A stretch of DNA of 64,000 bases, taken from the NCBI GenBank assembly GCA_903839855.1, contig CAIMEB010000160.1, positions 164-64,163 on the forward strand, written 5' to 3'. This stretch comes from an uncultured Methylococcaceae bacterium (GTDB lineage Bacteria; Pseudomonadota; Gammaproteobacteria; Methylococcales; Methylomonadaceae). How positions within the stretch are numbered: the stretch's first letter is position 1; each line of letters opens with the position of its first letter. The notes beneath the pieces were generated by a model. It was given only the letters and a program-made list of their open reading frames with translations, had not been told where the DNA came from and ran no database searches. Positions 4,164-22,647 of this stretch are shown here, one piece after another. The translations under genes were made by a program, and so were the position numbers.

Positions 4164-4262
4164 TTATTTGCTCAAATGTCTACAGGTGCTGTTATCGTCT
4201 TTGTAAACAGTCAATTGCTGACTAGAAGCGCAAATATCTAGGTAATTTTGCGCTTCATACAT
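4164..4262 (-). pseudogene. Truncated 5' stub of an L,D-transpeptidase (32 aa), containing copy B of the 65-bp repeat (4192-4256)
   Basis: ATG at 4262 overlaps the end of the SDR gene and reads MYEAQNYLDICASSQQLTVYKDDN.., versus ETQNYLDICVASQQLTVYKDGN in the intact gene; stop at 4164-4166. Confidence 0.8.
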
Positions 4263-5106
4263 AATCTGTAAGCAATTCTAAATAGCCGCTTTTATAGTTA
4301 GAATACTGAAACATATAACCCAGTGCTTTTAGGCGTTGATTACTGCAACGTTTGTTCATTTCAGTAGTACCGTCAGTCATTTTAACACCCGGTGGCTGAC
4401 AATTCATTTGTGCAGCCAACCACGAGATAACCTCCCACATCGGCGCTGGGTCATCATCACTGGCAACGTAACATTGTTCCAGCTGGATACCGGCTAAGTG
4501 ACATTCACATAAAAAGACTAACACACCAACACAATCTTGCTGATGAATTCGGTTTGTGTAATAGGGTGGGTCTTGTTGAATAACAGGAGATTGGCTAGCG
4601 AGTCTTAATAAATATTCTCGACCAGGGCCATAGATACCTGAAAAGCGCACGATGATATTATGAGTACTTAAAGCCATCAGTTTTTGCTCAGCCTGTCTAA
4701 TTAATTGGCTGGTGATGTTTGCTGGTTGCGAATTTGATAATTCATCAACCCATTCGCCTTGTGATTGACCATAAACACTGGTGGATGATACAAAAATCAA
4801 ACGTGCGGGTGAGTCAGACAGTGAAAGTCTTGAAATTAAGTTATCGAGTCCTGCTTCATAAATAGTTCGATAACTTTCTTCATTACGACCATCAGGTGAC
4901 ACGATAAAATAGACTATCTCAAAATCAAGAGGTAAATCTTTCAACTCGTTTGAAACGGTTATATCGGCGGTAAAGTAATTAATATCGTCAGTCACTCGAC
5001 TGGGTGGATGTCTTTTTAGCCCAGTGACATGATGCCCTTTAGCCGTTAGGGTATTAGCTAATTGCATCCCTATCGACCCACAGCCTACAATTAAAATTTT
5101 TGCCAT
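4255..5106 (-). CDS. NAD(P)-dependent epimerase/dehydratase, atypical SDR (YeeZ-like)
   Basis: N-terminal GCGSIG Rossmann motif, FVSSTSVYG, RFSGIYGPGR, TNRIHQQD. Confidence 0.85.
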   Translation of the reverse strand: MAKILIVGCGSIGMQLANTLTAKGHHVTGLKRHPPSRVTDDINYFTADITVSNELKDLPLDFEIVYFIVSPDGRNEESYRTIYEAGLDNLISRLSLSDSPARLIFVSSTSVYGQSQGEWVDELSNSQPANITSQLIRQAEQKLMALSTHNIIVRFSGIYGPGREYLLRLASQSPVIQQDPPYYTNRIHQQDCVGVLVFLCECHLAGIQLEQCYVASDDDPAPMWEVISWLAAQMNCQPPGVKMTDGTTEMNKRCSNQRLKALGYMFQYSNYKSGYLELLTDYV

Positions 5107-5118
5107 GATTTGATGTCT

Positions 5119-6519
5119 TTACTTAATATCAACTTTGGTTAGCTTTGTAATCGGTTTGTCGTTGTATTCACCGGTTAACGTCTTTAAAAACTCCACTAAG
5201 TTATTAGTTTCAACTTCAGTCAGGTTTTTGTTTCTTTGTACTTTAGCCATTATTTTAACTGCGTCTGCTAAATTGCTGATAGATCCATCATGAAAATAAG
5301 GCGAGGTAAACTCGATATTACGCAGTACGGGTACTTTAAAAAAATGACGATCTTTTTCATTTTTTGTAACGTTAAAACGACCTTGATCAGTTTCTGTTAA
5401 TTGATCACCTCTCAACATAAAGTAATTTTGTTTTACGCCCATTTTTTCAAATGATAAGCCACCTAATGCTGGGCCACTGTGACAAGAAGCACAATTAACT
5501 TTGAATAATTCATAGCCCGCTTTTTCATTACTGGTCAGGGCGTTGTTATTTCCACGCAAGTACTGGTCAAAAAGAGAGTTTGATGTCACCAACGATTGTT
5601 CAAATGTTGCAATAGCCTCTGTGACTGTTTCTTTACTTAAACCTTGTAGCGGATATAGGGAAGCAAAGGCATTTGTATAGTCAGGTACCCGCTTCAGTTT
5701 TTCAATTACAGTATCCCATTGAGCACCCATTTCACCCGGGTTGGCAACAGGGCCAGCGGCTTGTGCTTGTAAGTCTTTGGCTCGACCATCCCAAAATTGC
5801 GCTAGGTTATACATGGCATTATAGACCGTTGGAGAATTAATCGGTCCTTGTTGTCCGTTAATGCCAGTCGCCACTTTTGCTTGATCTGTACCGCCTTTAG
5901 TTAAGTCATGGCAGGATGCACAACTCAATGTATTGTCGCCAGAAAGTAAGGTGTCATGAAATAGATGCTGACCCAGTGCAACTTTTTGGGCATCAAGTTC
6001 TACTGTCAAAGGTAAAGGTTGTATAGGTTCACCTTTTAATGTACTGGTTGAATCATGGCTCCAGGCTAAATGACTACGCTCTTCTTTAATCCAGTCAAGA
6101 ATTGTTTGTTGTTCTTCTGTATCTAAACTATCGTTCCAATGCATAGAGAGATATAAAGCCGGAGGCATGCTATTGTTAAGGATAACACCTTCTATCCTGG
6201 CTAACTGGACAGGTGAAAACTTAACTTTGCCACTGTATAACTCGTTTGTAAGAATCAATCTATCTGAAGCATTTTCAATATCTTTTGCCATTAATCGCTT
6301 AGCAATAGGTAACTTTGCATAAATAGGCATTCGGGTCATGCCAGGAGAATGACAATCAACACATTTATTTTGAAAAATCTCAGTCACTTTTGTAAAATGC
6401 GGGGAGCTTCCCTCAATAACAGCAATGGGCTCATTTTCTCCAGATAGCCCTAATAAATTAGAAACCGGTAAAGCTAAAACAAGAGCAAACAAAGTCAATA
6501 CGACTAATTTAGTTTTCAT
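5119..6519 (-). CDS. ccp: Triheme cytochrome c peroxidase (YhjA-type: N-terminal anchor, extra heme domain, diheme CCP core)
   Basis: Three CxxCH motifs (CVDCH, CASCH, CASCH); NSPTVYNA, QFWDGRA, NPGEM and FKVPVLRNI..PYFHDG CCP motifs; hydrophobic N-terminus. Confidence 0.92.
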   Translation of the reverse strand: MKTKLVVLTLFALVLALPVSNLLGLSGENEPIAVIEGSSPHFTKVTEIFQNKCVDCHSPGMTRMPIYAKLPIAKRLMAKDIENASDRLILTNELYSGKVKFSPVQLARIEGVILNNSMPPALYLSMHWNDSLDTEEQQTILDWIKEERSHLAWSHDSTSTLKGEPIQPLPLTVELDAQKVALGQHLFHDTLLSGDNTLSCASCHDLTKGGTDQAKVATGINGQQGPINSPTVYNAMYNLAQFWDGRAKDLQAQAAGPVANPGEMGAQWDTVIEKLKRVPDYTNAFASLYPLQGLSKETVTEAIATFEQSLVTSNSLFDQYLRGNNNALTSNEKAGYELFKVNCASCHSGPALGGLSFEKMGVKQNYFMLRGDQLTETDQGRFNVTKNEKDRHFFKVPVLRNIEFTSPYFHDGSISNLADAVKIMAKVQRNKNLTEVETNNLVEFLKTLTGEYNDKPITKLTKVDIK

Positions 6520-6540
6520 AATTATTTTAAAGAAATTGAA

Positions 6541-9500
6541 TTAAAGCTCTGTTAATGCATAAACCTGAGTGGATTCATTGGGTTCATTAAATGAACACTC
6601 ACCCACTGAACAAAATCCCCATGAAGAATCAGCAGATAGCTGAATAGACTTGCTAACTGCCAGCGGTTTATGTAAATCTCTAGCAAGTGCGCCTAAGTTA
6701 ACAGCCTGATCAACGGTATGCCCTAAAACAGTGTAGTCCATTTTAATAGACGATCCGATATTACCTTCTATCATAGAATCTAGGGTTAAACCAAAACCAC
6801 ATCGAATAACGCTATAAATAGGGTTTTCTTCTGTTACTAGCTTAAATTTTTTGTACGCATCATTACAAGCTGCGATGGCTATATCCACTTGAGCAGGTAA
6901 AAAATGTGCAACTATACAACCCCCTGAATATTTAGCGACTTGCCCACCATGCTCTATAAATGATGCAGAACAAATCTCTAAAAAGTTATTCAAGGCCTTA
7001 ACAACGTCTTCTAAGGCAAAATCTTTAGATAAGCCTGAAAAATCTGTCATGCTCCCAGAAACGACAATTCTTTCTGTTTTTTTTATGGGAATGGTTAACG
7101 GGTTAATGCCTTCCATTAAATATTTAAGTAATACCGGTTGGGTATAACGCCCCACCATACTATAAGAGTGGGCAATGTTCTGTAACATCATACCAATTGC
7201 CAGCAACATGAGGTCATTGCTTTCGCTCAAGGCGACTGTTTTCATCCCCCATTCAGTAAAAAGGCGTTCTTCACAGCCAGTCTCTGCACTGAGTATCGTT
7301 ATTTCGTGATGTCTTGGATCTCGGCTGATTTTTTCTACCAACTCATCAACGATCGATTCTTCGCCTTCCAAAACTTGGAAGAAATAATCACGAACTGAAA
7401 TAAGTACACCTGTAACGTCCCTGTGTTTATTATTTATACTCGATATTCGTCCAATTTCAAGTATTTCTTCCTCATTAAGCACTGCATTTAATTTGCTTAC
7501 ATAGGTCAACCGCTTCATGCCTAGGGAGAATGTAGTGGCTGTTTCCGTCGCACGATAATTTGATAAATTACGTACTGCTTTACTCATTAACCAACCGCTT
7601 TTGATTAATGCTTTAAGATCCTCTTGTGAAACAATCTTAAGTTCACAATCAGTTAGGCAGCGTACTGTTTCAATACGCCGATTATTGTGTAACGGGAGAA
7701 TTTCTCCAAAATAATCACCTGGACCTAATTCTCGAATTATACGTCCTTCTTGCATGACCTTTAAACGGCCTGAGTCAACGGCATAGGCCATTTCTGCTGC
7801 ATCACCAGAACAAAATACATTATCCCCCGTCTTATAATGTGAGCGTTGTAAATGGGCTGAGGGTGCTTGTGATAAGACTGCAATATCGTTGCGAAACGCG
7901 AGCACTAAAAACCAATCTATAATAATTCGGAGATTTCTTTCTAAACCAGGTACCGAAAATAGATTAATCAAGCGGGATACAAACCAGGCTGGTTTACCAC
8001 CTATAATAACAGCTCCGAAAGCGCATAAAGAGTATTCAGCCATGTTATACGGTTGAATAAAATGAGTTCGTGTCTTAATAGGTCGTGTCTTATAACCTTG
8101 AGATGTGGCCCACGCATTAAAACCAGCCGTATACCCCAACGTGACTAGATCATCAGTAAAAGAAAATGATGGCTGGTTATTAGGTTCTTTTGATTCAGTT
8201 ATCCAAATATTTTCAAATCCCAGTAACCGTAATTCGTCATTAATTGCATATGGCCAGCTTAACTCACCGTAATATTTAAACTTAATATTAGGTAATTTTA
8301 AGGAAGCATTGATGACTAATCCAACTGATTGATTTTCACCATTGGCAAAAAATAAATCTCTTTGGGTAATGCCTGTTATTTCATCATTCAAATGTTCAAT
8401 GACGCCTGCTTTTTTCAAATTACGTGCACGACGCTGCTTGATTTTGTTTTCAAACGCTGACCAACATTGATCTTGCTCTTCAAAAAGATGAACTTGCCAA
8501 CCCACGCTTCGTAATACTGAATAAGAGGATTCTGCAGCGCGTAATATTTGACTTACTTCAACGGCTATTGTAGATGCGCACTCTCCAAAACCAATAATAG
8601 CAAAAGACAGGAGGCGAACTTGCTCGGCGGGATCATTAGCAAACTCAGCTTCTTCTACTAAGTCTAAAACACGCTGTCTAATACGTAAGGCATCGGCAAC
8701 AGAATCAACTAAACACGCATGTGCAAGCATTCCCGGAATGCTTGCAAAATTGGCTTTAGGACTCAGCGCCAGAATTAAACTATCATAAGGTAATTCAACA
8801 CTATCGTTATTCTTCCGCTTTGCAATGACTTTTTTAGCTCTTTCATCAACAGAATCTAAATGCCCCACCACTACATTCGTTTGTTGGATAATACGTCGAA
8901 AGGGATTGACCACATTACCGGGTTGGACTGTTCCTCCGATGACTTCTGGCAAAAAAGGTGCAAACAAAAAATTAGCCTGTTCATGCAACAACGTAATTTT
9001 AACGTTGGAATACTGCCCGATGAGATGTTCAATTTTAATGGCAGCTTGTAAAGCGGAAAGACCTCCGCCGACAATAACAATATGGGCTGATTTATCCCTG
9101 GCAATGGGCCGTTTAAGCTCACCTGCAGAGTTGATCAGGCAAGATAATACAACACCATAAAAAAGAATATGTTCTGTCGGTGTTTCTGGCAATAACAAAG
9201 CAAAGATAGAAAATGCAGAAATTAAAAACAACGATAAGGGACGTAATAAAACCCCAGCAATCATTAGAATACCGGCACTCACTTCAACTAATGCCATTAC
9301 TAAAGTGAAGGCTTCTGGATTAACCGATAAAACAGGCAAATGGTATTGCGTAATAATCCCAATCGAAAGATTAGGTTGCATGACTTTAAAAAAGACCCCT
9401 AAATACAATAAGGTGGTGCCTGTTAAAATACGCATAATCGCTTGAGCACGCAGCCGAGGTTGTTCTGCGAGCCAGGCTTGTAAGGGCTGGAACATGGCGG

Positions 9501-10161
9501 GGGTTGGTAAGGGTAAATAATGTCTACCGGGACCCTGTAGAACCAAATAAATACTCGCACCAATAATTGCACCAGCATAGGCAAATATGGCCTCACCATA
9601 TAGGTAAGCCCCCAAAAAACTTAAACAAATCAGTAAAAAAGAAAAGAAACGAACATAGATGCCAAATAATATGGTCAATCCCAACACGACTTCAGCCCAG
9701 CGTAACCAAGCCCAAGTGATGCCCAATTGAGTTAGATCAAGATCTGGAGCAAAGAAGGTGGGCTGAGTAAAGGGAGCAATTCCAAAACGTGGCTCGGCTC
9801 CTAAGGCGGATGATAATAAAATCCAACCGACACAAACACGCAAAATACGAGGTACATGATCGCCATAAGAAGATAAGCGTGCCTGTAAATCGGGAAATAA
9901 TTCTCTTGCACCGGTAAATCCTAACCACACCCAGCCGACGATAAATGTTACAAATACAGAAATCATTGCCATATTCAGTGGCGACCATTTTGCGAAGAGT
10001 TCGGGGTGCGGTAAAGAATTCCAATACGTAATCTGTACGGGTGTCAAAATCCAGCGCTCGTGAGCAACAGTTGACTCGGAAAATAATAGCAGTCCAGCGA
10101 CATTCAATATTAAAGCTAGAGTACCTAAAAAGCGACGAGATTTTAAAGTTAGGATCATCAT
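6541..10161 (-). CDS. 1206-aa multidomain membrane protein: signal peptide + DoxX-like membrane region (aa ~1-350), NDH-2-like flavoprotein fold (~359-760), cNMP-binding domain (~770-860), BLUF (882-976), degenerate class III nucleotidyl cyclase (~1028-1206)
   Basis: AHERW after a signal peptide and two DoxX-like repeats; IVIVGGG, LPEVIGG, YDSLILAL and RNLRIIIDW of NDH-2; GDYFGE..RRIETV of cNMP domains; MKRLTYVS..NN..TGVL..FFQVLEG..DPRH..WGM of BLUF; EGINPL..IEGNIGSSIKMDYTVLG resembling Beggiatoa bPAC. Confidence 0.88.
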   Translation of the reverse strand: MMILTLKSRRFLGTLALILNVAGLLLFSESTVAHERWILTPVQITYWNSLPHPELFAKWSPLNMAMISVFVTFIVGWVWLGFTGARELFPDLQARLSSYGDHVPRILRVCVGWILLSSALGAEPRFGIAPFTQPTFFAPDLDLTQLGITWAWLRWAEVVLGLTILFGIYVRFFSFLLICLSFLGAYLYGEAIFAYAGAIIGASIYLVLQGPGRHYLPLPTPAMFQPLQAWLAEQPRLRAQAIMRILTGTTLLYLGVFFKVMQPNLSIGIITQYHLPVLSVNPEAFTLVMALVEVSAGILMIAGVLLRPLSLFLISAFSIFALLLPETPTEHILFYGVVLSCLINSAGELKRPIARDKSAHIVIVGGGLSALQAAIKIEHLIGQYSNVKITLLHEQANFLFAPFLPEVIGGTVQPGNVVNPFRRIIQQTNVVVGHLDSVDERAKKVIAKRKNNDSVELPYDSLILALSPKANFASIPGMLAHACLVDSVADALRIRQRVLDLVEEAEFANDPAEQVRLLSFAIIGFGECASTIAVEVSQILRAAESSYSVLRSVGWQVHLFEEQDQCWSAFENKIKQRRARNLKKAGVIEHLNDEITGITQRDLFFANGENQSVGLVINASLKLPNIKFKYYGELSWPYAINDELRLLGFENIWITESKEPNNQPSFSFTDDLVTLGYTAGFNAWATSQGYKTRPIKTRTHFIQPYNMAEYSLCAFGAVIIGGKPAWFVSRLINLFSVPGLERNLRIIIDWFLVLAFRNDIAVLSQAPSAHLQRSHYKTGDNVFCSGDAAEMAYAVDSGRLKVMQEGRIIRELGPGDYFGEILPLHNNRRIETVRCLTDCELKIVSQEDLKALIKSGWLMSKAVRNLSNYRATETATTFSLGMKRLTYVSKLNAVLNEEEILEIGRISSINNKHRDVTGVLISVRDYFFQVLEGEESIVDELVEKISRDPRHHEITILSAETGCEERLFTEWGMKTVALSESNDLMLLAIGMMLQNIAHSYSMVGRYTQPVLLKYLMEGINPLTIPIKKTERIVVSGSMTDFSGLSKDFALEDVVKALNNFLEICSASFIEHGGQVAKYSGGCIVAHFLPAQVDIAIAACNDAYKKFKLVTEENPIYSVIRCGFGLTLDSMIEGNIGSSIKMDYTVLGHTVDQAVNLGALARDLHKPLAVSKSIQLSADSSWGFCSVGECSFNEPNESTQVYALTEL

Positions 10162-10330
10162 ATAGACAACTTCATAAAGAGGTGTAACATCATATTATTT
10201 TACAAAAAGTAAACAGATTGTTCACTTACCTTATCATAAAAAATGTAAATATAGAATTATTTGAAACTTAAAATAATGCTGACCTTATGATCAAGTGTTA
10301 AAAAAAACCATTAACAACAATAAATTGGAC

Positions 10331-11272
10331 TTACAACTGATTAATTAACTGTAATTCTTGAGGATACGGCGACATATAATAAGATTCATCAATGTACGTA
10401 TCCGGGGACTTACGAAAATGGTGTTTAAGCAGTGTCAATGGCACAATCAAGGGTATTTCACCACTACGATAACGTTCAATCAGTTCGCACAGTTCGGCTT
10501 TATCATCAGGCGTTAATTCTTTTTTTAAATAACCTTGAATATGTTGCAAGACATTGACGTGTTGACCACGATTTACAACTGATTTAAGCGTTGTCATTAA
10601 AAGCAGAATATATTGCTCAGCTATTTCCAGTAAATTATCTTTATTGATACGAGATAATAATTGCCCCATTTCACGGTAATCCGCATGGCTCATAATAATC
10701 AACTTGTGCCGAGCATGAAAATGGGTTAGTTTTTGAGGTGTTATTCCTTGTGCTACTAATTGTTTCCAGCGATGTAAGACGTAAACACGTTGAATAAAGT
10801 TTTCACGTAAGCCGGGGTCACCTAAACGACCTTCTTCTTCTACAGGCAGCAGTGGATTATTCTGCATCATAGTGTGAGCGTATACCCCAAAGCCTTCACG
10901 ATTAGGCTGGTGATTACCTGAATAAACTTTAACTCGCTCCATGCCGCAACTGGGCGAATCTTTCTTTAAGATATAACCACATAAATCAGCTTGAAACCCC
11001 TTCTGACTACTCGCATACTCTTTTAAACGGTCAGTCACATCGAATTCCGGATCTTTTACCCCGACACAACGAATCTCGTTATTTATTTTAACTAAATGAA
11101 TAGTCGGTCTAGGTATACCTAAGCCGATAGCCACTTCTGGGCAACAGGGACGAAAGTCAAAATAGTGAGATAAAGTACCGTTTATATAAGCATCCCGCTT
11201 GTGTGAACCATCAAAACGAACCAGCTCTCCCAATAAACAACTGCTAATGCCGATCGGAATCTTTTTTATCAT
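10331..11272 (-). CDS. DUF523/DUF1722 fusion (YbgA; TudS-like Fe-S desulfidase, RudS-type)
   Basis: GISSCLLG..VRFDG, CPEV and KKDSPSCG cysteine motifs; C-terminal FHARHKL..NVLQHIQGYLK..PYP DUF1722 region. Confidence 0.85.
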   Translation of the reverse strand: MIKKIPIGISSCLLGELVRFDGSHKRDAYINGTLSHYFDFRPCCPEVAIGLGIPRPTIHLVKINNEIRCVGVKDPEFDVTDRLKEYASSQKGFQADLCGYILKKDSPSCGMERVKVYSGNHQPNREGFGVYAHTMMQNNPLLPVEEEGRLGDPGLRENFIQRVYVLHRWKQLVAQGITPQKLTHFHARHKLIIMSHADYREMGQLLSRINKDNLLEIAEQYILLLMTTLKSVVNRGQHVNVLQHIQGYLKKELTPDDKAELCELIERYRSGEIPLIVPLTLLKHHFRKSPDTYIDESYYMSPYPQELQLINQL

Positions 11273-11295
11273 AATAGGTGAGTGAGTTTGGTTGG

Positions 11296-12018
11296 TTATT
11301 GCTCATCAACTTCTTCAATGACTAATTCATGTTGTATGGATTTTGACGGTGCGGTTGTCTTTTTAACTTCCAACGGTCTTTGAACAGTCTTCACCCGTAT
11401 TTTTCTAGTACTTGGAATCATCATTTTATGTAACTGCCGGTTTTTTATCCAGACGGCAATGCGGAAACCGAATAATAAAAAAATCAGTATTAAATAAAAT
11501 AAGGGTTCTGCCATATTACCTTTAAGTTGCCAGTAATAATGAATAATAGCGGCAATGGCTGCAAGATAGATAAATCGGTGAAGTTTTTTCCAATTCTTAC
11601 CCAGAAGCTTTTTACCAAATTTAGGCGAGGAAATAGCTAAGGCAAAAATGATCGAATAAGCTAGCACACCCAGCCAAATATAAGGACTTTCAAGGATATC
11701 AATCGCAATAAGGTGCCAGTCCAGACCATGATCAACCAAAATATAAACGAGTACATGTAGGCTTGCATAAAAAAAGGCTACCATACCTAACATTTGTCGA
11801 TAGTCTGCCATTTTACGCCATTTCGTAATGGTTTGAAGTGGTGTAATCGTTAGGGTTAGCCATAAAAAGCGCAACGACCAGTCTCCTAAGCGAATATGTA
11901 ATGTCTGGATAGGGTCGGCCCCTAAATTATTGTTTGCGATATCGAGTAATATCACAATTAGAGGTAAGAAACAGACTAAGGCTATGAATAACCAGCGATT
12001 TTTTGAAGATAAAAACAT
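11296..12018 (-). CDS. msrQ: Methionine-sulfoxide reductase heme-binding membrane subunit MsrQ
   Basis: LGADPI, GDWSL, LTITPL, YRQMLG..FFYASLH, WKKLHRFIY..IHYYW; 1-nt overlap with msrP. Confidence 0.92.
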   Translation of the reverse strand: MFLSSKNRWLFIALVCFLPLIVILLDIANNNLGADPIQTLHIRLGDWSLRFLWLTLTITPLQTITKWRKMADYRQMLGMVAFFYASLHVLVYILVDHGLDWHLIAIDILESPYIWLGVLAYSIIFALAISSPKFGKKLLGKNWKKLHRFIYLAAIAAIIHYYWQLKGNMAEPLFYLILIFLLFGFRIAVWIKNRQLHKMMIPSTRKIRVKTVQRPLEVKKTTAPSKSIQHELVIEEVDEQ

Positions 12019-12980
12019 TAGAAGAAATGCCGCAGATCCATATCGCTATACAGCGAGGCAACTTGGCTTCCATAGCCATTAAATAACTCAGTCTTTCTAC
12101 GGGGTGTAAAAAAACCACTGCCTAATTGGCGTTCACTGTTTTGGCTCCATCTAGGGTGGGGGACTTCAGGATTCACATTAGAATAGAAGCCGTAGTCATT
12201 TGGAGCGAATTTATTCCAGGTAGTCACAGGTGGTTTCTTTACTAACTCAATTTTTACAATGGCTTTAATGCTTTTAAAGCCATATTTCCAGGGTACGACT
12301 AAACGTAAAGGGGCACCATTTTGCTTAGGCATCCTTTCACCGTACATGCCAGCGGCTAAAATAGTTAAAGGGTGCATCGCTTCATCAATACGAAGGCCTT
12401 CAACATAAGGCCATTCCAACATGGCATTATCACGTTGATTGGGCATTGTTTTGGGATCGTAAATTGAGGTAAATTGAACAAATTGTGCGCTGGATAAAGG
12501 TTTTGCTATTTTTAATAAGTTCATTAACGGAAAACCAATCCAAGGGACTACCATAGACCATGCTTCAACACAGCGAAAACGGTAGATATATTCCTGTAGC
12601 GATTGCTGGCTTAAGATATCTTCTAAGTGATAAACAGCCGGCTTTTCTACTTCACCACTGATCTCTACTGACCAAGGATCGGTCGGCAATCTTTGTGCTA
12701 GTTGCGTTGCATCTGTTTTATTAAAAGTAAATTCATAATAGTTAGTATGATTTTTGACAATATCAGCAGGCGTCGCAATTAAGGATTCAGCTGGGACATT
12801 GGCTTTAGGAAGATCAGTCCATACAGACTTGGTTTCAGCTAAAGCAGAAGAAGCAGAAACGCCAGCGGCTCCAGCAGCGAGTGATCCCATCATGGCTTTA
12901 ATAATTTGACGTCTTTGTTTAAATATTAAAGGGTCGGTAATATCACTGCTGGGAATGTCTTTATGTGTTTTAATTATCAT
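12018..12980 (-). CDS. msrP: Methionine-sulfoxide reductase catalytic molybdoenzyme MsrP
   Basis: Twin-Arg leader (QRRQII), NYYEF, RFRCVEAWSM (Mo-ligand Cys), GAPLRLVVPWKYGFKSIK, YGFYSNVNP..HPRWSQ. Confidence 0.95.
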   Translation of the reverse strand: MIIKTHKDIPSSDITDPLIFKQRRQIIKAMMGSLAAGAAGVSASSALAETKSVWTDLPKANVPAESLIATPADIVKNHTNYYEFTFNKTDATQLAQRLPTDPWSVEISGEVEKPAVYHLEDILSQQSLQEYIYRFRCVEAWSMVVPWIGFPLMNLLKIAKPLSSAQFVQFTSIYDPKTMPNQRDNAMLEWPYVEGLRIDEAMHPLTILAAGMYGERMPKQNGAPLRLVVPWKYGFKSIKAIVKIELVKKPPVTTWNKFAPNDYGFYSNVNPEVPHPRWSQNSERQLGSGFFTPRRKTELFNGYGSQVASLYSDMDLRHFF

Positions 12981-13023
12981 GACTTGACCCTAAAGAAAGA
13001 AAATTTTTAAATCCAAGAATAGG

Positions 13024-13890
13024 CTATTGGTTTTTTTTGCCTTTTGGAATCCAGCCTAATAACTTTCTAACTTTCATTTCGGTAATAAAGGCCAAAGAAA
13101 AGAGTTGAATAAAGTTGTCGGCCTGAATTAAATCCAGACCAATGTGTTCAGGCACTAATTCTTTTCGCGTACCAAACACCCGATCCCAGATTGAAAATAC
13201 GATACCGTAATTACTGTCATGCTCAGAGCGCTTTTTGGAATGGTGGGTTCTATGTAAAGCCGGAGTAATAAATACCTGTGAAATTAACTCCTCTTTAGGA
13301 GCTTTAATATTGGCATGATGAAACAGGATAAAGAATAACTCGACAATCTCAATAGAAAGTACCATGTAGGCATTAACACCAATAATGACTACAAACACAC
13401 ACTTGTAGAGAATTTCCAGTAATAAATCGAAAACATGAAATCTAAAGCCAGTCGATACATTAAAGCCTTTGTCGCTATGGTGGACTTTGTGAAAGCGCCA
13501 TAGAAATTCAAATTTATGACTTGCAACATGCCAAAGGTAAATTGCAAAATCAAATAACGCAAAGGCCAAAATCCATTTAATAGGGCCATCTTCCAAACCA
13601 CTTAATAAGCCATGTGAGGCAAATTTCTGTGCGATAAGAAAGAGTGAAGACGCCCTTAAGACAGTTAATATGAGATTATTAACTAAAAAAGCCGTGGTAT
13701 TGGTTACAAACGACTCTTTAAAAACTTTTTGTGGAAAGTCCCTAAAGGGTTGACGTTTTTCAATAACGATTAGCACGATAAAGGCGAGGACAGCCAGGCC
13801 AAATAGCGCTTCATTAAAAAACATCCCATTGCTATTGCTTATAGTCTCTGTTGATTTCATAGATAAAAATTTGTGGTTAGTTATAAGCAA
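13024..13890 (-). CDS. Sterol desaturase / fatty-acid hydroxylase superfamily protein
   Basis: His boxes WHVASH, FHKVHH, HRTHH plus DSNYG..SIWDRVFGT. Confidence 0.88.
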   Translation of the reverse strand: MLITNHKFLSMKSTETISNSNGMFFNEALFGLAVLAFIVLIVIEKRQPFRDFPQKVFKESFVTNTTAFLVNNLILTVLRASSLFLIAQKFASHGLLSGLEDGPIKWILAFALFDFAIYLWHVASHKFEFLWRFHKVHHSDKGFNVSTGFRFHVFDLLLEILYKCVFVVIIGVNAYMVLSIEIVELFFILFHHANIKAPKEELISQVFITPALHRTHHSKKRSEHDSNYGIVFSIWDRVFGTRKELVPEHIGLDLIQADNFIQLFSLAFITEMKVRKLLGWIPKGKKNQ

Positions 13891-13902
13891 ATCGGACTGG
13901 GT

Positions 13903-14358
13903 TTACTCACCGCTGATAGCCGTTAATAATGCATTCAATTCTTTAATCTCGTTATTAGCGTCGACTTGTTTAGTGATATCATACTGCACGCCCAAATAAT
14001 AAATTACCCGGTGTTTGTTATCCAATAAGGGGGTTATTTTTAAATGGTTGTGAAATAATTCACCATCCTTCTTATAATTTCGTAGAGTGACTTCAACCGT
14101 TTCATGATTTTTCATGGCTTCTGCGATAATAAAACGTCCTGGTTGTTCTCTATCTTCGCCTTGTAAGAAACGGCAGTTAAAACCAATGATATCTTCTTGA
14201 GTATAACCGGTTAAACGTTCGAATGCCTTGTTTGCGTAAACAATGGGCGCATCTTCTAAATCAGGATCTGCTAGGGTAACGCCATTGACACATTCATCTA
14301 AAATAGCAGACAGCACTTGTGGTATGAGTGCGTTATCTTTTTTAACAATAAAAGACAT
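13903..14358 (-). CDS. Short (effector-less) LOV blue-light photoreceptor
   Basis: PIVYANKAF..TGY..GFNCRFLQG with the photoactive Cys, RNYKKDG, and GVQ (conserved Gln); only a short helix follows. Confidence 0.92.
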   Translation of the reverse strand: MSFIVKKDNALIPQVLSAILDECVNGVTLADPDLEDAPIVYANKAFERLTGYTQEDIIGFNCRFLQGEDREQPGRFIIAEAMKNHETVEVTLRNYKKDGELFHNHLKITPLLDNKHRVIYYLGVQYDITKQVDANNEIKELNALLTAISGE

Positions 14359-14403
14359 TTATTAAACTCCAAATCTTTAGTAATGATCAATCGATTGGAT
14401 TGA

Positions 14404-14886
14404 TCAGTTTGCATAGGCGAGCATTAAGCTCTTAATATTTTCAACCGTGTTTTCAGCACCTTCTTCTATCGAAGCGCGAATCAATTTTTGAAACGGCCTC
14501 ATGAAAACCTCAATTTCTGATAATTCAAATCGAAACGTCAGGCGAGTAGATTGTTTCTCTTTATCTCCTTCCAGAAGATAACTGTGTACATAAGGTTCAT
14601 TCAAACCCTTAAACCTGAGCTTTTCTACCGGTTGATAATCAGTTATTTCGAATACAGATTCAACTAATGAACCCTGATCCTCTCGAACTTGTTTGGTCTT
14701 GGCTCCAATGAAAGGTTGTTCACCGTCTAATGGTTCTAGTTCAACCACTTCGGGAGCCCATTTAGGGTAGTTATCGTAAAAACGTTCACCGATAAAACAA
14801 AAAACATTTTCAATTGATTGCTCAATATTAACGCTCGCTTCACCGGTAATCGGTTTTGATGAATCAAATGGAAATTTTATTTGCAC
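14404..14886 (-). CDS. SRPBCC (START/polyketide-cyclase-like) family protein
   Basis: IEQSIENVF.F...NYPKW.PEV pattern, beta-rich core and C-terminal helix; GTG start with an AGGAG RBS. Confidence 0.7.
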   Translation of the reverse strand: MQIKFPFDSSKPITGEASVNIEQSIENVFCFIGERFYDNYPKWAPEVVELEPLDGEQPFIGAKTKQVREDQGSLVESVFEITDYQPVEKLRFKGLNEPYVHSYLLEGDKEKQSTRLTFRFELSEIEVFMRPFQKLIRASIEEGAENTVENIKSLMLAYAN

Positions 14887-15123
14887 TTTAATACCACTCC
14901 TTGTTGAGGGCGATTACTCAACTTAATTCTTTTAATGTGTTGTCTCAATGAGTAATCGTTCAACTGGTCTATTTTTTAGAGAGACATAAACTTGAATACC
15001 GTGTTTAATTTACACTGACTTGGTTAAATTGCAAATTTAATTAAGTGACGGTACTTAGATTTGACTCTTTTAGAATTCGTGGAAAAATTAACAGCATGTT
15101 TTTTGCACTTTTAAGAGCCAAGT

Positions 15124-15567
15124 TTGTCTATGACCTTTAAAATTCTTTTTTATATTATTTTTATGACCTTGAGTGGCGCCAATCAAGCTGATTCAGGCTC
15201 AAAAAAACTCTTACCACCGTGTCGTGATACACCTAACTGTGTTTCAAGCCAAACTCAAGATCCAAAACAGTTTGTTGCGCCTTTTAAAATCAAAGGTAAT
15301 ACAACGGAGGCTTGGCAGGCGTTAAAAGACACTCTAAATCAACATAGCCGTATGACGATTACTCACGAAACACCTACTAATATTCATGCGGAAGCGACCA
15401 GTTTAGTTCTTCATTTTGTTGATGATATTGATTTTATTCTCGATGCCGAAAATAAGACCATTCATATTCGCTCGTCCTCCCGTGTGGGTCATAGTGAATT
15501 TGGTGTTAATCATAAACGGATTGAAGCACTTCGTTTGCAATTACAAAAAGCTCAGTTAATCAGTTAA
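15124..15567 (+). CDS. DUF1499 family exported protein
   Basis: LPPC..TPNCVSSQ, FVDD..F, IHIRSSSRVGHSEFGVNHKRIE. Confidence 0.85.
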   Translation: MSMTFKILFYIIFMTLSGANQADSGSKKLLPPCRDTPNCVSSQTQDPKQFVAPFKIKGNTTEAWQALKDTLNQHSRMTITHETPTNIHAEATSLVLHFVDDIDFILDAENKTIHIRSSSRVGHSEFGVNHKRIEALRLQLQKAQLIS

Positions 15568-15590
15568 TCATTCGATCAATACAAAACGTA

Positions 15591-16958
15591 ATGTTTCACT
15601 ATACAAACTCGGTATTTATTTTTCGTCGTGATCTACGTTTACAGGATAATACCGGACTTAATGAAGCGTTGAGACTTTCTAAACAGGTGTTACCGTGTTT
15701 TATATTTGACCCAAGGCAAATTGAGCCTCATCCCTATCAAAGTAAGTCGGCTTTGCAGTTTATGTTGCAGTGTCTTACAGACCTTCAACAGCAATTAAAA
15801 GCACTGGGGGCAGAACTGGGACTTTATCAGGCGCTTCCGTTGCAAGTCATTAGTCAATTGGTACGACAGCAGGCCATACAGGCAGTGTTTATCAATCGTG
15901 ATTACACACCCTTTAGCCGACAACGCGATGATGAGTTAGCGACGCTTTGTAAAGAGTTGGGTATCAGCTTATACATTTTAAATGATAGTTTGCTGACTGA
16001 GCCTGAGCAGGCGCTTAAAAATGATCAAACACCGTATAAGGTGTTTACAGCTTTTTATAAAAATGCTCGCCAATTTCCGATTCCATTGCCTCACGTTTTG
16101 TATAGCCAATCGTTTTTGCTTCCTCAAACGAGTTCAAACATTAAAGACCTTGGTTTATCGTTAACAGAGATAAAGGCTAATGTTTTGCAGGGTGGGCGAA
16201 ATCAAGCCTTGGCAATGCTTGCAACACTCAGTCATCAAGCAGATTATCAGAACATGCGTGACTATCCGGCGCTGGATAGTACCAGCAAGTTGTCGGCTCA
16301 TCTTAAGTTTGGTACCTGTTCCGTGCGCGAAGCTTACTATGCGATTGTTGAGGTGTTGGGTAGTGAACATCCTTTATTACGTCAACTCTATTGGCGAGAC
16401 TTTTTTACCCACATTGCGTATCATTTTCCTCAGGTGTTCGGTCGCGCTTTTATCGATAAGTTTGCCAATTTACCTTGGGATAATAATCGTGTGTATTTTC
16501 AGGCTTGGGCAGAAGGTAAAACGGGGTTTCCTATTGTGGACGCCGGTATGAGAGAACTCAATGAAACCGGGTTTATGCATAATCGGGTCAGAATGATTGC
16601 GGCTTCATTTCTGGTTAAAGATCTACATGTCAGTTGGCGTTGGGGGGAACGTTATTTTGCCCAACATTTGATAGATTATGATCCTTGCGTGAATAATGGA
16701 AACTGGCAGTGGGCTGCGTCAACCGGTTGTGATGCACAACCTTATTTCAGAATCTTTAATCCCTGGTTACAACAACAAAAGTTTGATGCGGATTGCAAGT
16801 ATATTTATCATTGGCTACCCGAACTTAAAGGCTTTTCTACAAAGACCATTCATCAATGGTATAAAAAACATCAACCTTGTAATTATCCAACACCGATTAT
16901 TGATCATGCTTATGAAAGCCAGCTAAGTAAGGCAAGGTACAAAGCCTCAACGGATTAA
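15591..16958 (+). CDS. phr: Deoxyribodipyrimidine (CPD) photolyase
   Basis: FRRDLRLQDN, TSKLSAHLKFG, QLYWRDF, GKTGFPIVDAGMREL..TGFMHNRVRM, DYD..NNGNWQW, YFRIFNP; Trp-triad positions present. Confidence 0.93.
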   Translation: MFHYTNSVFIFRRDLRLQDNTGLNEALRLSKQVLPCFIFDPRQIEPHPYQSKSALQFMLQCLTDLQQQLKALGAELGLYQALPLQVISQLVRQQAIQAVFINRDYTPFSRQRDDELATLCKELGISLYILNDSLLTEPEQALKNDQTPYKVFTAFYKNARQFPIPLPHVLYSQSFLLPQTSSNIKDLGLSLTEIKANVLQGGRNQALAMLATLSHQADYQNMRDYPALDSTSKLSAHLKFGTCSVREAYYAIVEVLGSEHPLLRQLYWRDFFTHIAYHFPQVFGRAFIDKFANLPWDNNRVYFQAWAEGKTGFPIVDAGMRELNETGFMHNRVRMIAASFLVKDLHVSWRWGERYFAQHLIDYDPCVNNGNWQWAASTGCDAQPYFRIFNPWLQQQKFDADCKYIYHWLPELKGFSTKTIHQWYKKHQPCNYPTPIIDHAYESQLSKARYKASTD

Positions 16959-17109: not shown

Positions 17110-17346
17110 TTAAGCCGGATTGAGTAGGTTTAATACTGTTTGTGCCTGCTCTGCCGCTTCGTGTCCCAGGCTGGTTAAATAACCACCATCTTCTTGTGTT
17201 AACAGTCCCTTATTGTATAAACGCTTAGTTGCTGCGATGGCTTCCGGGGCTGCCGTTTTATGTACTTTAATACCTTCCTGGGTAGTGCTGAGGTTATAGC
17301 GAACCAGGATATTTATTTCATCTACAAGATCTTTAGTATAGGGCAT
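17110..17346 (-). CDS. TIGR02647-family small putative DNA-binding protein
   Basis: TTQEGIKVH..A..RLYNKGL.TQ.DGGYLT.LG pattern recalled for this family. Confidence 0.75.
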   Translation of the reverse strand: MPYTKDLVDEINILVRYNLSTTQEGIKVHKTAAPEAIAATKRLYNKGLLTQEDGGYLTSLGHEAAEQAQTVLNLLNPA

Positions 17347-19562: not shown

Positions 19563-21308
19563 ATGACAAAAACAAATAAATCCGATTTGGAAAAGGCTTT
19601 AAACTTATGTAAAGGTGCTTTTATATGGGCAGCTGTTTTTAGCATGGTCATTAACCTATTACAGCTTGTTCCAACCATTTATATGTTGCAGTTATATGAT
19701 CGGGTTGTTCCAACCGGTAATCGGTCAACGTTACTGATGCTAACATTAATCATGTTGGTGTTGTTTTTATCATTGGGTGCTTTGGAATGGGTACGCTCTC
19801 AAATCTTAGTTAGGGTGAGTTCACGACTGGAAACCTTGCTTAATGAAAGATTATTTAATATCTGTTATAAACAGGCGCTTTATTCGGGTGGGCAACAGGC
19901 TTCCTCTCAAGCGCTAGATGATCTAACGTCGTTAAGACAATTTTTAACTGGAAATGGCCTCTTTGCTTTTTTTGATGTGCCATGGATACCGGTTTATATC
20001 GCTGTTATGTTTATTTTTCACCCCGCTTACGGGTGGACAGCTATAGGCGTTGCTATTATCTTGATGATTGTTGCGGTAATTCAAGAACGAGTAACTGCTA
20101 AGATATTAGGCGAAGCAAATACCCTGGCAAATATAGGCAGGGGCTTGGTCAATAAAAACCTGAGAAACGCAGAAGTGATTGAATCAATGGGGATGTTACA
20201 GAATATCCAGAAGCGATGGATAGAAGGCACCCGACAGGTTCTTGTCTTACAGGCAACCGCAAGCTCACGTGCTGGATTAGTGAGTGGTTTATCGAAAATT
20301 ATTCGCATGTCTTCACAATCCCTGATTTTAGCGTTAGGTGCATATTTAGTTATAGAGAATGAAATAACCGGCGGCTTGATGATCGCAGGTTCAATCCTAT
20401 TAGGACGTGCACTTGCGCCAATTGATATGATGATTGGTTCGTGGAAAGGTTTTGTAGGAGCGCGGGGGCAGTACCATCGTCTTAACGAACTGTTACGTCA
20501 GATTCCAACAGACCTTGAAAAAATGACTTTGCCAGAACCTGAAGGTTTTTTCCAGCTTGAAAATGCGGTAGTGGTGCCACCAGGTGCAAAAGTGCCGGCC
20601 TTAAAAGGCATTACCATGATGATTGCTAAGGGTGATGTGGTCGGTGTTATTGGACCGAGTGGCTCTGGAAAATCAACATTTGCTCGGGCGCTACTGGGGA
20701 TATGGCCCACAGCGAATGGCAAGGTTCGTTTAGACGGTGCCGAGGTGTTTACCTGGAATCGCAAAGAATTAGGTCCATTTATAGGTTATTTGCCTCAAGA
20801 TATAGAACTTTTTGAAGGTACCATCAGTGAAAACATTGCGAGGTTTGGTGATATAGAGCCAGAAAAAGTAGTTAATGCCGCCAAAATGGCTGATGTTCAT
20901 ACGATGATTTTACATTTACCGCAAGGTTATGATACGCATATAGGCGCCGGTGGCGGCAATCTGTCGGGTGGTCAGCGGCAACGCATCGGTTTGGCTAGAG
21001 CTTTGTATGGAAACCCTGTTATTGTCGTACTGGACGAGCCAAATTCGAATTTAGATGAACAAGGTGAGGCGGCTTTAAGCAGTGCTATTATCCGATTAAA
21101 GCAAAAAAAGGTCACCGTCATTGTCATTACTCATCGTAATAATGTGCTTATTAACGTAGATAAACTGCTCATCCTAAGTGACGGACAGTTATCTGTCTAT
21201 GGACCCAAGGATCAAGTCATTGCTCATCTGCAAAAACAGCAGGTGGTTGCCACACAAGAAAACACACCTCCAGAGTCACCGGCTACTCCTTTGAAATCAC
21301 CTTTATAA
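19563..21308 (+). CDS. Type I secretion ABC permease/ATPase (PrtD/AprD type)
   Basis: YMLQLYDRV, FFDVPW, GPSGSGKST, LSGGQRQR, VVLDEPNSNLD; no C39 domain. Confidence 0.93.
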   Translation: MTKTNKSDLEKALNLCKGAFIWAAVFSMVINLLQLVPTIYMLQLYDRVVPTGNRSTLLMLTLIMLVLFLSLGALEWVRSQILVRVSSRLETLLNERLFNICYKQALYSGGQQASSQALDDLTSLRQFLTGNGLFAFFDVPWIPVYIAVMFIFHPAYGWTAIGVAIILMIVAVIQERVTAKILGEANTLANIGRGLVNKNLRNAEVIESMGMLQNIQKRWIEGTRQVLVLQATASSRAGLVSGLSKIIRMSSQSLILALGAYLVIENEITGGLMIAGSILLGRALAPIDMMIGSWKGFVGARGQYHRLNELLRQIPTDLEKMTLPEPEGFFQLENAVVVPPGAKVPALKGITMMIAKGDVVGVIGPSGSGKSTFARALLGIWPTANGKVRLDGAEVFTWNRKELGPFIGYLPQDIELFEGTISENIARFGDIEPEKVVNAAKMADVHTMILHLPQGYDTHIGAGGGNLSGGQRQRIGLARALYGNPVIVVLDEPNSNLDEQGEAALSSAIIRLKQKKVTVIVITHRNNVLINVDKLLILSDGQLSVYGPKDQVIAHLQKQQVVATQENTPPESPATPLKSPL

Positions 21309-21315
21309 TGTACCT

Positions 21316-22644: not shown

Positions 22645-22647
22645 CGT

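Follow-up and report, generated by a model that had tools for sequence, protein, structure and literature searches.

We describe here a gene cluster at positions 4255-16958 of a 64,000-nucleotide stretch of DNA from an uncultured Methylococcaceae bacterium (contig CAIMEB010000160.1; the whole 64-kb stretch is called the window below), in which a short LOV photoreceptor, a BLUF-domain protein and a DNA photolyase are encoded close to one another and to genes for the repair of oxidative damage (Table 1). Open reading frame (ORF) prediction combined with Pfam and NCBIfam searches recovered all eleven genes that a first-pass annotation of this DNA had placed here, and bore out both the divergent region at 14887-15123 and the functional assignments that it had given. 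A twelfth gene, coding for a protein of the short-chain dehydrogenase/reductase (SDR)/epimerase family, belongs to the same minus-strand array and lies 12 bp beyond the peroxidase gene. Gaps between the genes of this array measure 12-45 bp, with the exception of 169 bp ahead of the BLUF gene. The taxonomic placement was confirmed as well, with all close relatives belonging to the Methylococcales and the sequence itself being found in lake-water metagenomes. Horizontal transfer, which the word "island" in the first-pass annotation would imply, was rejected, since the GC content of the cluster (0.37-0.40) is the same as that of its flanks and its surroundings are housekeeping genes (dksA, gluQ, purD, purH, dusB, accBC, glnD, rpsB-tsf-pyrH-frr and sucAB). 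The cluster is chromosomal and does not form a compositional island.

Table 1. Genes, protein domains and intergenic elements of the cluster (positions in the window; residue numbers refer to the protein).
Feature	Position	Strand	Basis
SDR/NAD-dependent epimerase family, 283 aa, last gene of the array	4255..5106	-	Pfam PF01370
YhjA-type tri-haem cytochrome c peroxidase, 466 aa	5119..6519	-	Pfam Haem_bd + CCP_MauG
BLUF fusion protein, 1206 aa, five domains	6541..10161	-	Pfam; PAC homology
BLUF fusion: class III cyclase-homology domain, catalytic residues lost, residues 1020-1206	6544..7104	-	
BLUF fusion: BLUF domain, residues 882-974	7240..7518	-	Pfam BLUF, E 3.4e-25
BLUF fusion: cNMP-binding domain, residues 775-858	7588..7839	-	
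BLUF fusion: NDH-2-like flavoprotein domain, residues 358-760	7882..9090	-	Pyr_redox_2, E 3.4e-20
BLUF fusion: DoxX-type membrane domain, about residues 1-345	9127..10161	-	~six hydrophobic segments
Intergenic region upstream of the BLUF gene, 169 bp; left end of the 5.2-kb cassette	10162..10330	-	L013 comparison
RudS-type protein (TudS/DUF523 desulfidase + DUF1722), 313 aa	10331..11272	-	Pfam PF04463, PF08349
MsrQ, haem-b membrane partner of MsrP	11296..12018	-	NCBIfam NF003831
MsrP, periplasmic molybdopterin methionine-sulfoxide reductase	12018..12980	-	NCBIfam NF003767 equivalog
Membrane di-iron FA_hydroxylase/sterol-desaturase-family protein, 288 aa	13024..13890	-	Pfam PF04116, E 2.4e-28
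Short LOV, 151 aa	13903..14358	-	NCBIfam YtvA_fam LOV region, E 2e-44
SRPBCC (Polyketide_cyc2), 160 aa, first gene of the minus-strand array	14404..14886	-	Pfam PF10604, E 5.8e-9
Divergent intergenic region, 237 bp, between the SRPBCC array and the DUF1499-photolyase pair	14887..15123	.	
Stem-loop GTTGAG-N8-CTCAAC, just 5' of the SRPBCC Shine-Dalgarno	14903..14922	-	
DUF1499 protein, 147 aa, probable signal peptide	15124..15567	+	Pfam PF07386, E 1e-34
Class I-type CPD photolyase, 455 aa	15591..16958	+	Pfam DNA_photolyase + FAD_binding_7

Neighbours of the LOV gene were counted by tblastn of the window proteins against 20-kb loci (designated by L numbers), and only loci with enough flanking sequence entered each count. 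The SRPBCC gene was found directly upstream of LOV in 75 of 75 loci and the hydroxylase gene directly downstream in 72 of 73, while MsrP follows the hydroxylase in 54/67 loci and MsrQ is present in 49/62 (~80%). The order SRPBCC-LOV-hydroxylase is kept in 75 Methylococcales species of several genera, and LOV is the most constant and best-conserved member of the operon, with 74-94% identity across 80 species. The other genes of the window were found near LOV less often: RudS in 14/51 loci, the photolyase in 10/41, DUF1499 in 10/70, the SDR in 7/55 and the BLUF fusion in 2/51. The complete order of the window also appeared on three more metagenome contigs, where the fusion protein is 97% identical and the cassette described below sits in the same place, so that this gene arrangement is not a peculiarity of one assembly.

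These comparisons resolve the cluster into three layers. The first is an old operon of SRPBCC, short LOV and hydroxylase, usually followed by MsrP and MsrQ, which is conserved across the methanotroph family. In the second layer, a lake clade added RudS and the SDR downstream, and DUF1499 with a cyclobutane pyrimidine dimer (CPD) photolyase divergently upstream. This layout (divergent DUF1499-photolyase, downstream RudS-SDR) is common to the lake-water metagenome-assembled genomes (MAGs) L012-L017, L029, L038, L045, L051 and L052; in 10 lake-MAG species DUF1499 and the photolyase form a pair that is transcribed divergently from SRPBCC, and the SDR directly follows RudS in L013, L014, L016, L017 and L049, and the peroxidase in L006, L007 and L010. 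Methylomonas arrived at the same gene set in another order, with a single same-strand array of SRPBCC-LOV-hydroxylase-MsrP-MsrQ-YfcH-like epimerase-hypothetical-photolyase-lipocalin-RudS. The third layer is recent and consists of a 5.2-kb cassette, carrying the BLUF fusion and the peroxidase, that was inserted between RudS and the SDR. In the sister species L013 (85% identical by nucleotide comparison), the stop codon of RudS and the start of the SDR are only 22 bp apart (L013:14014-14037) and positions 5110-10329 of the window (intergenic region, BLUF fusion and peroxidase) have no counterpart; because L013 joins RudS straight to the SDR, the cassette was gained in the lineage of the window. 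Neither repeats nor mobile-element genes were seen at the cassette junctions, where no search aimed at these was made. In L012 (89% identical), homology stops at the RudS stop codon and pgaBCD-like genes come next. The cluster had first been read as one coordinated unit; the picture that emerges is of an old LOV core with later additions, one of which, the BLUF-peroxidase cassette, the sister species does not have.

Further genes of related function recur around the same core. In M. tundripaludum, SodB is the next gene after MsrQ, and in five species that lack an MsrPQ match beside the core the gene upstream, in divergent orientation, is MsrA. Nine of the 80 species, and L010 in addition, have BLUF genes at most 10 kb from LOV; these come in four architectures, namely the large fusion, a fusion of BLUF with PsiE, a form of 286 aa and a short one. 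The fusion of BLUF with a PsiE-family membrane domain is 319 aa long (L072:13059-14018; also in L049, L075 and L089) and lies up to ~5 kb from the LOV core. L010 is a 29.6-kb contig (JGI 3300046008) that looks plasmid-like, with Rep3 and ParA genes; within 16 kb it carries SRPBCC-LOV-hydroxylase, a PAS-domain methyl-accepting chemotaxis protein (PAS-MCP), two PAS-GGDEF(/EAL) proteins, a 165-aa BLUF protein and the trio BLUF fusion-peroxidase-epimerase, and it may represent a mobile photosensory module.

We estimate the chance of finding three flavin photoproteins within 10 kb of a ~4 Mb genome at roughly 1e-5 to 1e-4. A stronger argument against chance than this figure is provided by the recurrent, differently arranged linkages in other genomes. 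Neutral drift of gene order, by which the genes would have come together accidentally, is a very improbable account: the presence of BLUF-peroxidase, photolyase and RudS beside LOV in only 4-27% of species and the recent insertion of the cassette would agree with it, but the core order was kept across ~75 species of several genera, and the same functions were recruited repeatedly, in other orders and through non-homologous enzymes (MsrA versus MsrPQ, and the four BLUF architectures). The association of LOV with methionine-sulfoxide repair, photolyase, RudS, other oxidative-stress genes and BLUF proteins is selected and not accidental. We consider it highly probable that positions 4255-16958 of the window form a selected cluster against light and photo-oxidative stress.

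The LOV protein at the centre of this cluster carries the motif GFNCRFLQG with the adduct-forming Cys62, and consists of an N-cap, the LOV core and a J-alpha helix, with no effector domain. Its match to the YtvA_fam model is below the whole-protein cut-off, as expected for a protein that aligns with only the first 130 of 243 model positions. The best matches in the Protein Data Bank (PDB) are short LOVs of Pseudomonas (7a6p, PpSB1-LOV 3sw1 and PpSB2-LOV 7r5n; E 1e-30 to 5e-33), with alignments that span residues 9-149 and thus the N-cap, the core and J-alpha. Arg70 and Arg75 correspond to Arg61 and Arg66 of PpSB1-LOV, the loss of which speeds dark recovery ~100-fold, with replacement of Arg66 bringing it from 2471 down to 23 min (PMC6047819). 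Since the two arginines match, a slow photocycle is predicted, and the protein is probably a slow-cycling blue-light sensor of the PpSB1 type. A second LOV paralogue (57-67% identical) lies beside the core in some species (L018:7628-8077, L024:7631-8080, L022:4734-5675), and in L022 it is paired with a second SRPBCC gene, indicating that the SRPBCC-LOV pair duplicates as a unit.

The LOV protein would signal through protein-protein contact, either with a repressor encoded elsewhere, as in Pseudomonas, or with the adjacent SRPBCC protein and hydroxylase. In the second case the three genes would form a post-translational module, in which the lit LOV binds the SRPBCC lipid-binding protein or the hydroxylase and thereby brings about a protective modification of membrane lipids (hopanoid, ornithine lipid, sterol or carotenoid). 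In its favour, these three genes are invariant neighbours, with gaps of 12-45 bp, in 72-75 species in which everything else varies, and no transcription factor is linked to them as a partner. The Pfam descriptions give hydrophobic ligands for SRPBCC domains and lipids as the targets of the FA_hydroxylase family; the hydroxylase of the window has three His boxes (residues 121, 134 and 213) and predicted transmembrane (TM) segments, and its sole named relative, at 91 bits against an NCBIfam cut-off of 475, is the ornithine-lipid hydroxylase OlsE. We nevertheless regard such a module as rather unlikely, as the effectors known for short LOVs are transcription regulators, and a sequence search of solved structures returned no match for the hydroxylase and no meaningful one for SRPBCC.

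The first of the two routes corresponds to what is known from Pseudomonas, where the photolyase and RudS (ybgA-type) genes do belong to light-induced regulons, as the first-pass annotation had stated for other proteobacteria (PMC11417400, PMC9758184). In P. putida, PhrB, LitR and RudS (PP_0741) share one blue-light-inducible operon (PMC11417400), and in P. mendocina the light-activated short LOV relieves repression by LitR: PmSB-LOV binds and inactivates PmlR2 in the light, and the regulon includes phrB and SDRs (PMC9758184). By analogy, the LOV of the window would be the anti-repressor of a distant class II LitR (MerR-type) that represses the cluster in the dark, with SRPBCC and the hydroxylase as mere members of the regulon. 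The close relationship of the LOV to the solved Pseudomonas proteins speaks for this scheme, which we nonetheless find rather unlikely as well in view of the regulator searches. LOV and LitR genes are adjacent in Pseudomonas, but no MerR-family gene was found either in the 64-kb window or among the neighbour families present in at least 3 of the 80 species. In addition, no conserved palindromic operator precedes SRPBCC, and the one conserved element at this place behaves as an RNA hairpin.

The regulator searches were of two kinds. Pfam was run on ~50 ORFs of the window, among them almost every non-nested ORF of 120 aa or more, and revealed no MerR/LitR/CarH protein, no extracytoplasmic function (ECF) sigma/anti-sigma pair and no other dedicated regulator, with only DksA and a DUF5669 protein nearby. 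In the second search, 579 ORFs from the 80 species were clustered, and most families seen in at least 3 of the 80 loci were annotated and the unannotated ones inspected; these are enzymes, small membrane or secreted proteins and BLUF proteins, with no transcription factor among them. The absence of LitR/CarH and RpoE-ChrR regulators noted in the first-pass annotation thus holds for the window as well as for the recurrent neighbours of LOV. Promoter and terminator scanning was uninformative in this AT-rich DNA, with 45 promoter-like sites against 40.2 +/- 6.8 expected; in the divergent region 14887-15123 the sigma-70 scan did not rise above chance, and no sigma-E-type promoter was identified. 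Footprinting of the region upstream of SRPBCC across genera revealed no shared or palindromic operator and no clear sigma-70 or ECF promoter; it retrieved only an RNA hairpin and genus-specific motifs.

The hairpin is predicted at the same place in ~45 of 62 distinct SRPBCC upstream sequences and is kept in Methylobacter, Methylomonas, Crenothrix-like and lake-clade species. Five of its six base pairs show compensatory changes, in sequences that were picked for having the hairpin, so that this count is biased, and its G-U pairs are valid on the sense strand only. The element is probably an RNA structure of the 5' untranslated region. Loci of the Methylovulum, Methyloglobulus and Methylomagnum types do not have the stem-loop and carry conserved motifs of their own upstream, such as AAGTGGATAAATTGAA or TTGCTA-N16-TAGAAT. 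In a M. tundripaludum-like organism, one metatranscriptome contig (L048:9247-10153, run X21) begins 190 nt or more ahead of the SRPBCC start; provided that it does not stem from read-through or from carried-over DNA, transcription would start far upstream of the hairpin.

Among the repair enzymes, MsrP scored 443 bits against an NCBIfam cut-off of 207 (NF003767) and MsrQ 166 bits against 130 (NF003831), the start of MsrQ overlapping the stop of MsrP at position 12018. In the RudS-type protein, PF04463 covers residues 7-147 and PF08349 residues 190-304; Cys12, Cys44 (in CPE) and Cys109 (in SPSCG) align with Cys10, Cys43 and Cys104 of TudS (6z92), and the protein has the [4Fe-4S] cysteines, the catalytic Glu and the Ser-x-Ser among the residues that define the RudS family (PMC11417400). 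It is predicted to be a tRNA 4-thiouridine desulfidase. For the photolyase (DNA_photolyase E 2.8e-42; FAD_binding_7 E 1.3e-78) the best PDB matches are CPD photolyases, namely 2e0i (E 8e-123), 1tez/1qnf and 1dnp, and the protein is below the equivalog cut-offs of both antenna subtypes, 8-hydroxydeazaflavin (8-HDF) or methenyltetrahydrofolate (MTHF), with 380 versus 885 bits for TIGR03556 and 342 versus 506 bits for NF007955. Together, photolyase, RudS and MsrPQ would protect DNA, tRNA and periplasmic protein, either by repairing damage or by forestalling it.

The gene first described as coding for a BLUF protein does contain a BLUF domain, but its product is not a simple BLUF protein: it is a fusion of 1206 aa and five domains (Table 1). 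Its C-terminal 337 aa align end to end, over 322-327 residues, with the photoactivated adenylate cyclases (PACs) OaPAC (4yus, 9f1w) and bPAC (5m27), with phmmer E values of 1e-63 to 6e-71. The residues of the BLUF photocycle (Tyr887, Gln929, Trp971 and Met973) are invariant in 88 full-length relatives, four of which have an alignment gap at the Tyr. In the cyclase-homology domain, four of the six canonical cyclase residues are changed, with OaPAC D156, D200, N273 and R277 being replaced by S1037, G1081, D1151 and N1155. The first metal-binding Asp, at the position of OaPAC D156, is absent in 88/88 relatives, and the other catalytic positions vary freely. This domain is the least conserved of the five, and yet it is 38-58% identical between distant members, with 51-91% in the linker between BLUF and cyclase, a conservation that fits a retained structural role for the dead cyclase domain.

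An active PAC, whose own cAMP would bind to its own cNMP domain, was among the candidates that we tried and rejected. The full-length PAC homology that comes right after a cNMP-binding domain, and the label of class 3 adenylate cyclase given to relatives by JGI (Joint Genome Institute), would both suit such an enzyme. With the metal-binding Asp pair and the transition-state Asn and Arg replaced, the protein fails the catalytic-residue test for PACs; its Guanylate_cyc match is below the Pfam threshold, the phosphate-binding cassette of the cNMP domain is altered as well, and cyclase activity is barely conceivable.

That cassette (residues 818-833, window 7663-7710) reads FGE...R-I-E-T-V and retains the Gly, Glu and Arg. 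BLUF-less relatives of ~880 aa keep the canonical R-T-A-T-V, whereas all BLUF-bearing forms have R-[V/I/A]-E-T-V. Binding of a cyclic nucleotide is doubtful with such a cassette, and the conserved Glu may sit in the phosphate site and act as an intrinsic ligand. The flavoprotein domain has two dinucleotide motifs, VGGGLSA (about residue 364) and IGFGECA (about residue 524), and its best PDB matches are NDH-2 enzymes (E 2e-16 to 5e-11), with sulfide:quinone reductases being weaker; the alignment with NDH-2 structures is limited to the first ~250 residues of the domain. Relatives of the fusion occur in Methylococcales and in Nitrosomonas, where they are labelled only as "BLUF domain-containing protein", and no paper was found in the literature that combines BLUF with NDH-2, DoxX and cNMP-binding domains. 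Upstream of the BLUF-fusion genes, a comparison of seven distinct contexts revealed no common motif. The 12-mer AACAATCTGTTT, an AACA-N3-TGTT palindrome, is shared between the window (about 10205-10216) and Methylomarinum vadi (L003, about 9806-9817); the two fusion proteins are only 53% identical, and the 12-mer may be an operator or a product of chance.

The peroxidase encoded next to the fusion has a TM-like N-terminal segment (residues 5-23) and CxxCH motifs at residues 53, 200 and 343. Over residues 44-452 its identity with E. coli Ccp/YhjA (b3518) is 44%, and it matches PDB 9qdt with E 1e-106. YhjA is a tri-haem protein with a predicted TM helix, for which the quinol pool was proposed as electron source (PMC10301912). 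By sequence-level criteria the peroxidase of the window is of the YhjA type, and it may likewise use quinol. Of 11 distinct genomic contexts of the BLUF fusion, five have a tri-haem peroxidase as the next gene (the window, M. paludis L001, L010, L040/L053 and L096) and six do not (L003, L004, L008, L093, L094 and L095); in two of these six, MsrA or SodB lies within 3 kb.

The first-pass annotation saw the LOV and BLUF proteins as possible controllers of the cluster; the presence of a BLUF domain within an enzyme makes it more likely that light gates this enzyme than that it gates transcription. We propose that the BLUF fusion would be a light-switched membrane NAD(P)H:quinone reductase, in which the BLUF signal would pass through the dead ex-cyclase domain and the altered cNMP domain to the NDH-2 domain. 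The resulting quinol would feed the tri-haem peroxidase, which would reduce periplasmic H2O2 to water, and possibly also MsrQ/MsrP. Homology and adjacency suggest this BLUF-quinone-peroxidase route, which we put forward tentatively and with somewhat less than even confidence. The reading of the 1206-aa protein as the first photoreceptor-gated enzyme of respiratory-chain type, with the ex-PAC and ex-cNMP domains relaying the signal purely by allostery to an NDH-2/DoxX quinone reductase and with blue light opening the removal of H2O2 from NAD(P)H through quinol and peroxidase, is bolder still and must count as speculative. If it holds, the fusion would, together with the family-wide LOV operon, make up a two-sensor light defence and offer a molecular handle on the light inhibition of methane oxidation. 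Taken as a whole, a three-layer cluster against blue and near-UV light and against oxidants, which includes the BLUF-quinone-peroxidase route, is the interpretation that we favour as reasonably likely.

Several observations weigh against this interpretation. MsrPQ, tri-haem peroxidases and superoxide dismutase (SOD) answer to non-photic oxidants in other bacteria. The NDH-2-like activity, its control by BLUF and the use of quinol by the peroxidase we infer from homology and adjacency. Only a few lineages have the BLUF-peroxidase pair next to the LOV core; the pair is often elsewhere in the genome, and it may add little to the older cluster. With no linked transcription factor, the route from light to transcription is a conjecture. 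The window itself was found in no RNA sequencing run, the only matches being lake DNA metagenomes. For a M. tundripaludum-like locus, low-depth contigs from two sediment metatranscriptomes span the SRPBCC-LOV, LOV-hydroxylase and MsrP-MsrQ junctions, which weakly suggests co-transcription of the core genes; such contigs could include DNA carry-over.

An alternative is a general cluster against oxidative or envelope stress (H2O2, HOCl or micro-oxic H2O2 respiration), in which the photoreceptors would be bystanders that signal to, for example, motility or cyclic di-GMP, and oxidants instead of light would induce the repair genes. MsrPQ, the YhjA-type peroxidase, SOD and MsrA serve in oxidant defence and have no intrinsic tie to light, and YhjA was proposed to act in anoxic conditions (PMC10301912). 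In L010, moreover, the LOV trio and the BLUF genes flank the PAS-MCP and GGDEF/EAL signalling genes, and the scans of window ORFs and neighbour families found no light-responsive regulator. Photolyase and RudS, on the other hand, are specific to UV and near-UV targets and joined the LOV core in two independent arrangements, and no other member of the operon is as constant or as well conserved as LOV. BLUF genes of four architectures recur near LOV, and in the window BLUF and the redox enzyme are parts of one protein. We therefore judge the bystander explanation to be quite unlikely and retain the light-defence cluster as our preferred reading.

Two neighbours of the cluster are recorded here for completeness. 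A 78-aa DUF5669 protein is encoded at 17110-17346 on the minus strand, convergent with the photolyase, and is not kept at this place on L005, a related contig with the full cluster. Past gluQ, at 19563-23976, lies a type I secretion trio (ABC exporter, HlyD-family adaptor and TolC-like OEP), which is unrelated to the cluster.

Light has often been named as a factor that controls methane oxidation in lakes, and the cluster makes an effect of light on methanotrophs testable; the LOV operon is common to cultured strains of Methylomonas, Methylobacter and Methylovulum, so that the genes are tractable. For short LOVs, one class of effector (LitR) was identified so far, and the invariant SRPBCC-LOV-hydroxylase arrangement, which has no LitR in its vicinity, suggests that a second output mechanism exists. 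The BLUF fusion would be a natural example of a photoactivated cyclase that has become a pseudo-enzyme and now controls a redox enzyme, which makes it of interest for the evolution of signalling and a possible optogenetic scaffold. Full-text literature searches found no photoreceptor or light regulon, and neither LOV nor BLUF, described for methanotrophs. Light-stress clusters, short LOVs, PACs and YhjA-type peroxidases are each known individually; the searchable literature appears to contain no description of the methanotroph operon centred on LOV or of the pseudo-PAC/NDH-2 fusion.

Among known systems, the RpoE-ChrR regulon of Rhodobacter and its relatives resembles the cluster in that it joins a photolyase with lipid-modifying and redox enzymes, which are induced by photo-oxidative stress. 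It differs by its ECF sigma/anti-sigma pair, which is found neither in the window nor among the recurrent neighbours. The LitR/PplR-PmlR regulon of Pseudomonas (PpSB1/PpSB2/PmSB-LOV) has a short LOV of the same subfamily, a CPD photolyase, a RudS-type desulfidase and SDRs (PMC9758184; PMC11417400). In contrast to that regulon, no MerR/LitR gene lies in the window or beside LOV in the 80 species, its ufaM/cfa, folE and FAD amine-oxidase-type genes were not found here, the LOV gene sits inside an operon between SRPBCC and the hydroxylase, and MsrPQ is a core member. Residues 882-1206 of the BLUF fusion are homologous to OaPAC and bPAC from end to end, including the BLUF photocycle residues and the linker helices. 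Unlike these free-standing proteins of ~350 aa, the module has lost its catalytic residues and forms the C-terminus of a 1206-aa membrane flavoenzyme. With NDH-2 (mycobacterial Ndh, yeast Ndi1) the fusion shares two Rossmann dinucleotide motifs and an NDH-2-like C-terminal amphipathic region, but identity is low, only the N-terminal two-thirds align, and the flavoprotein domain is fused to a DoxX-type multi-pass domain and three sensory domains. The peroxidase, finally, resembles E. coli YhjA/Ccp and the quinol peroxidase of Aggregatibacter in its three CxxCH motifs, its N-terminal TM helix and its extra haem domain; what distinguishes it from E. coli YhjA is that its gene is paired here with that of a photoreceptor-bearing NDH-2-like protein.

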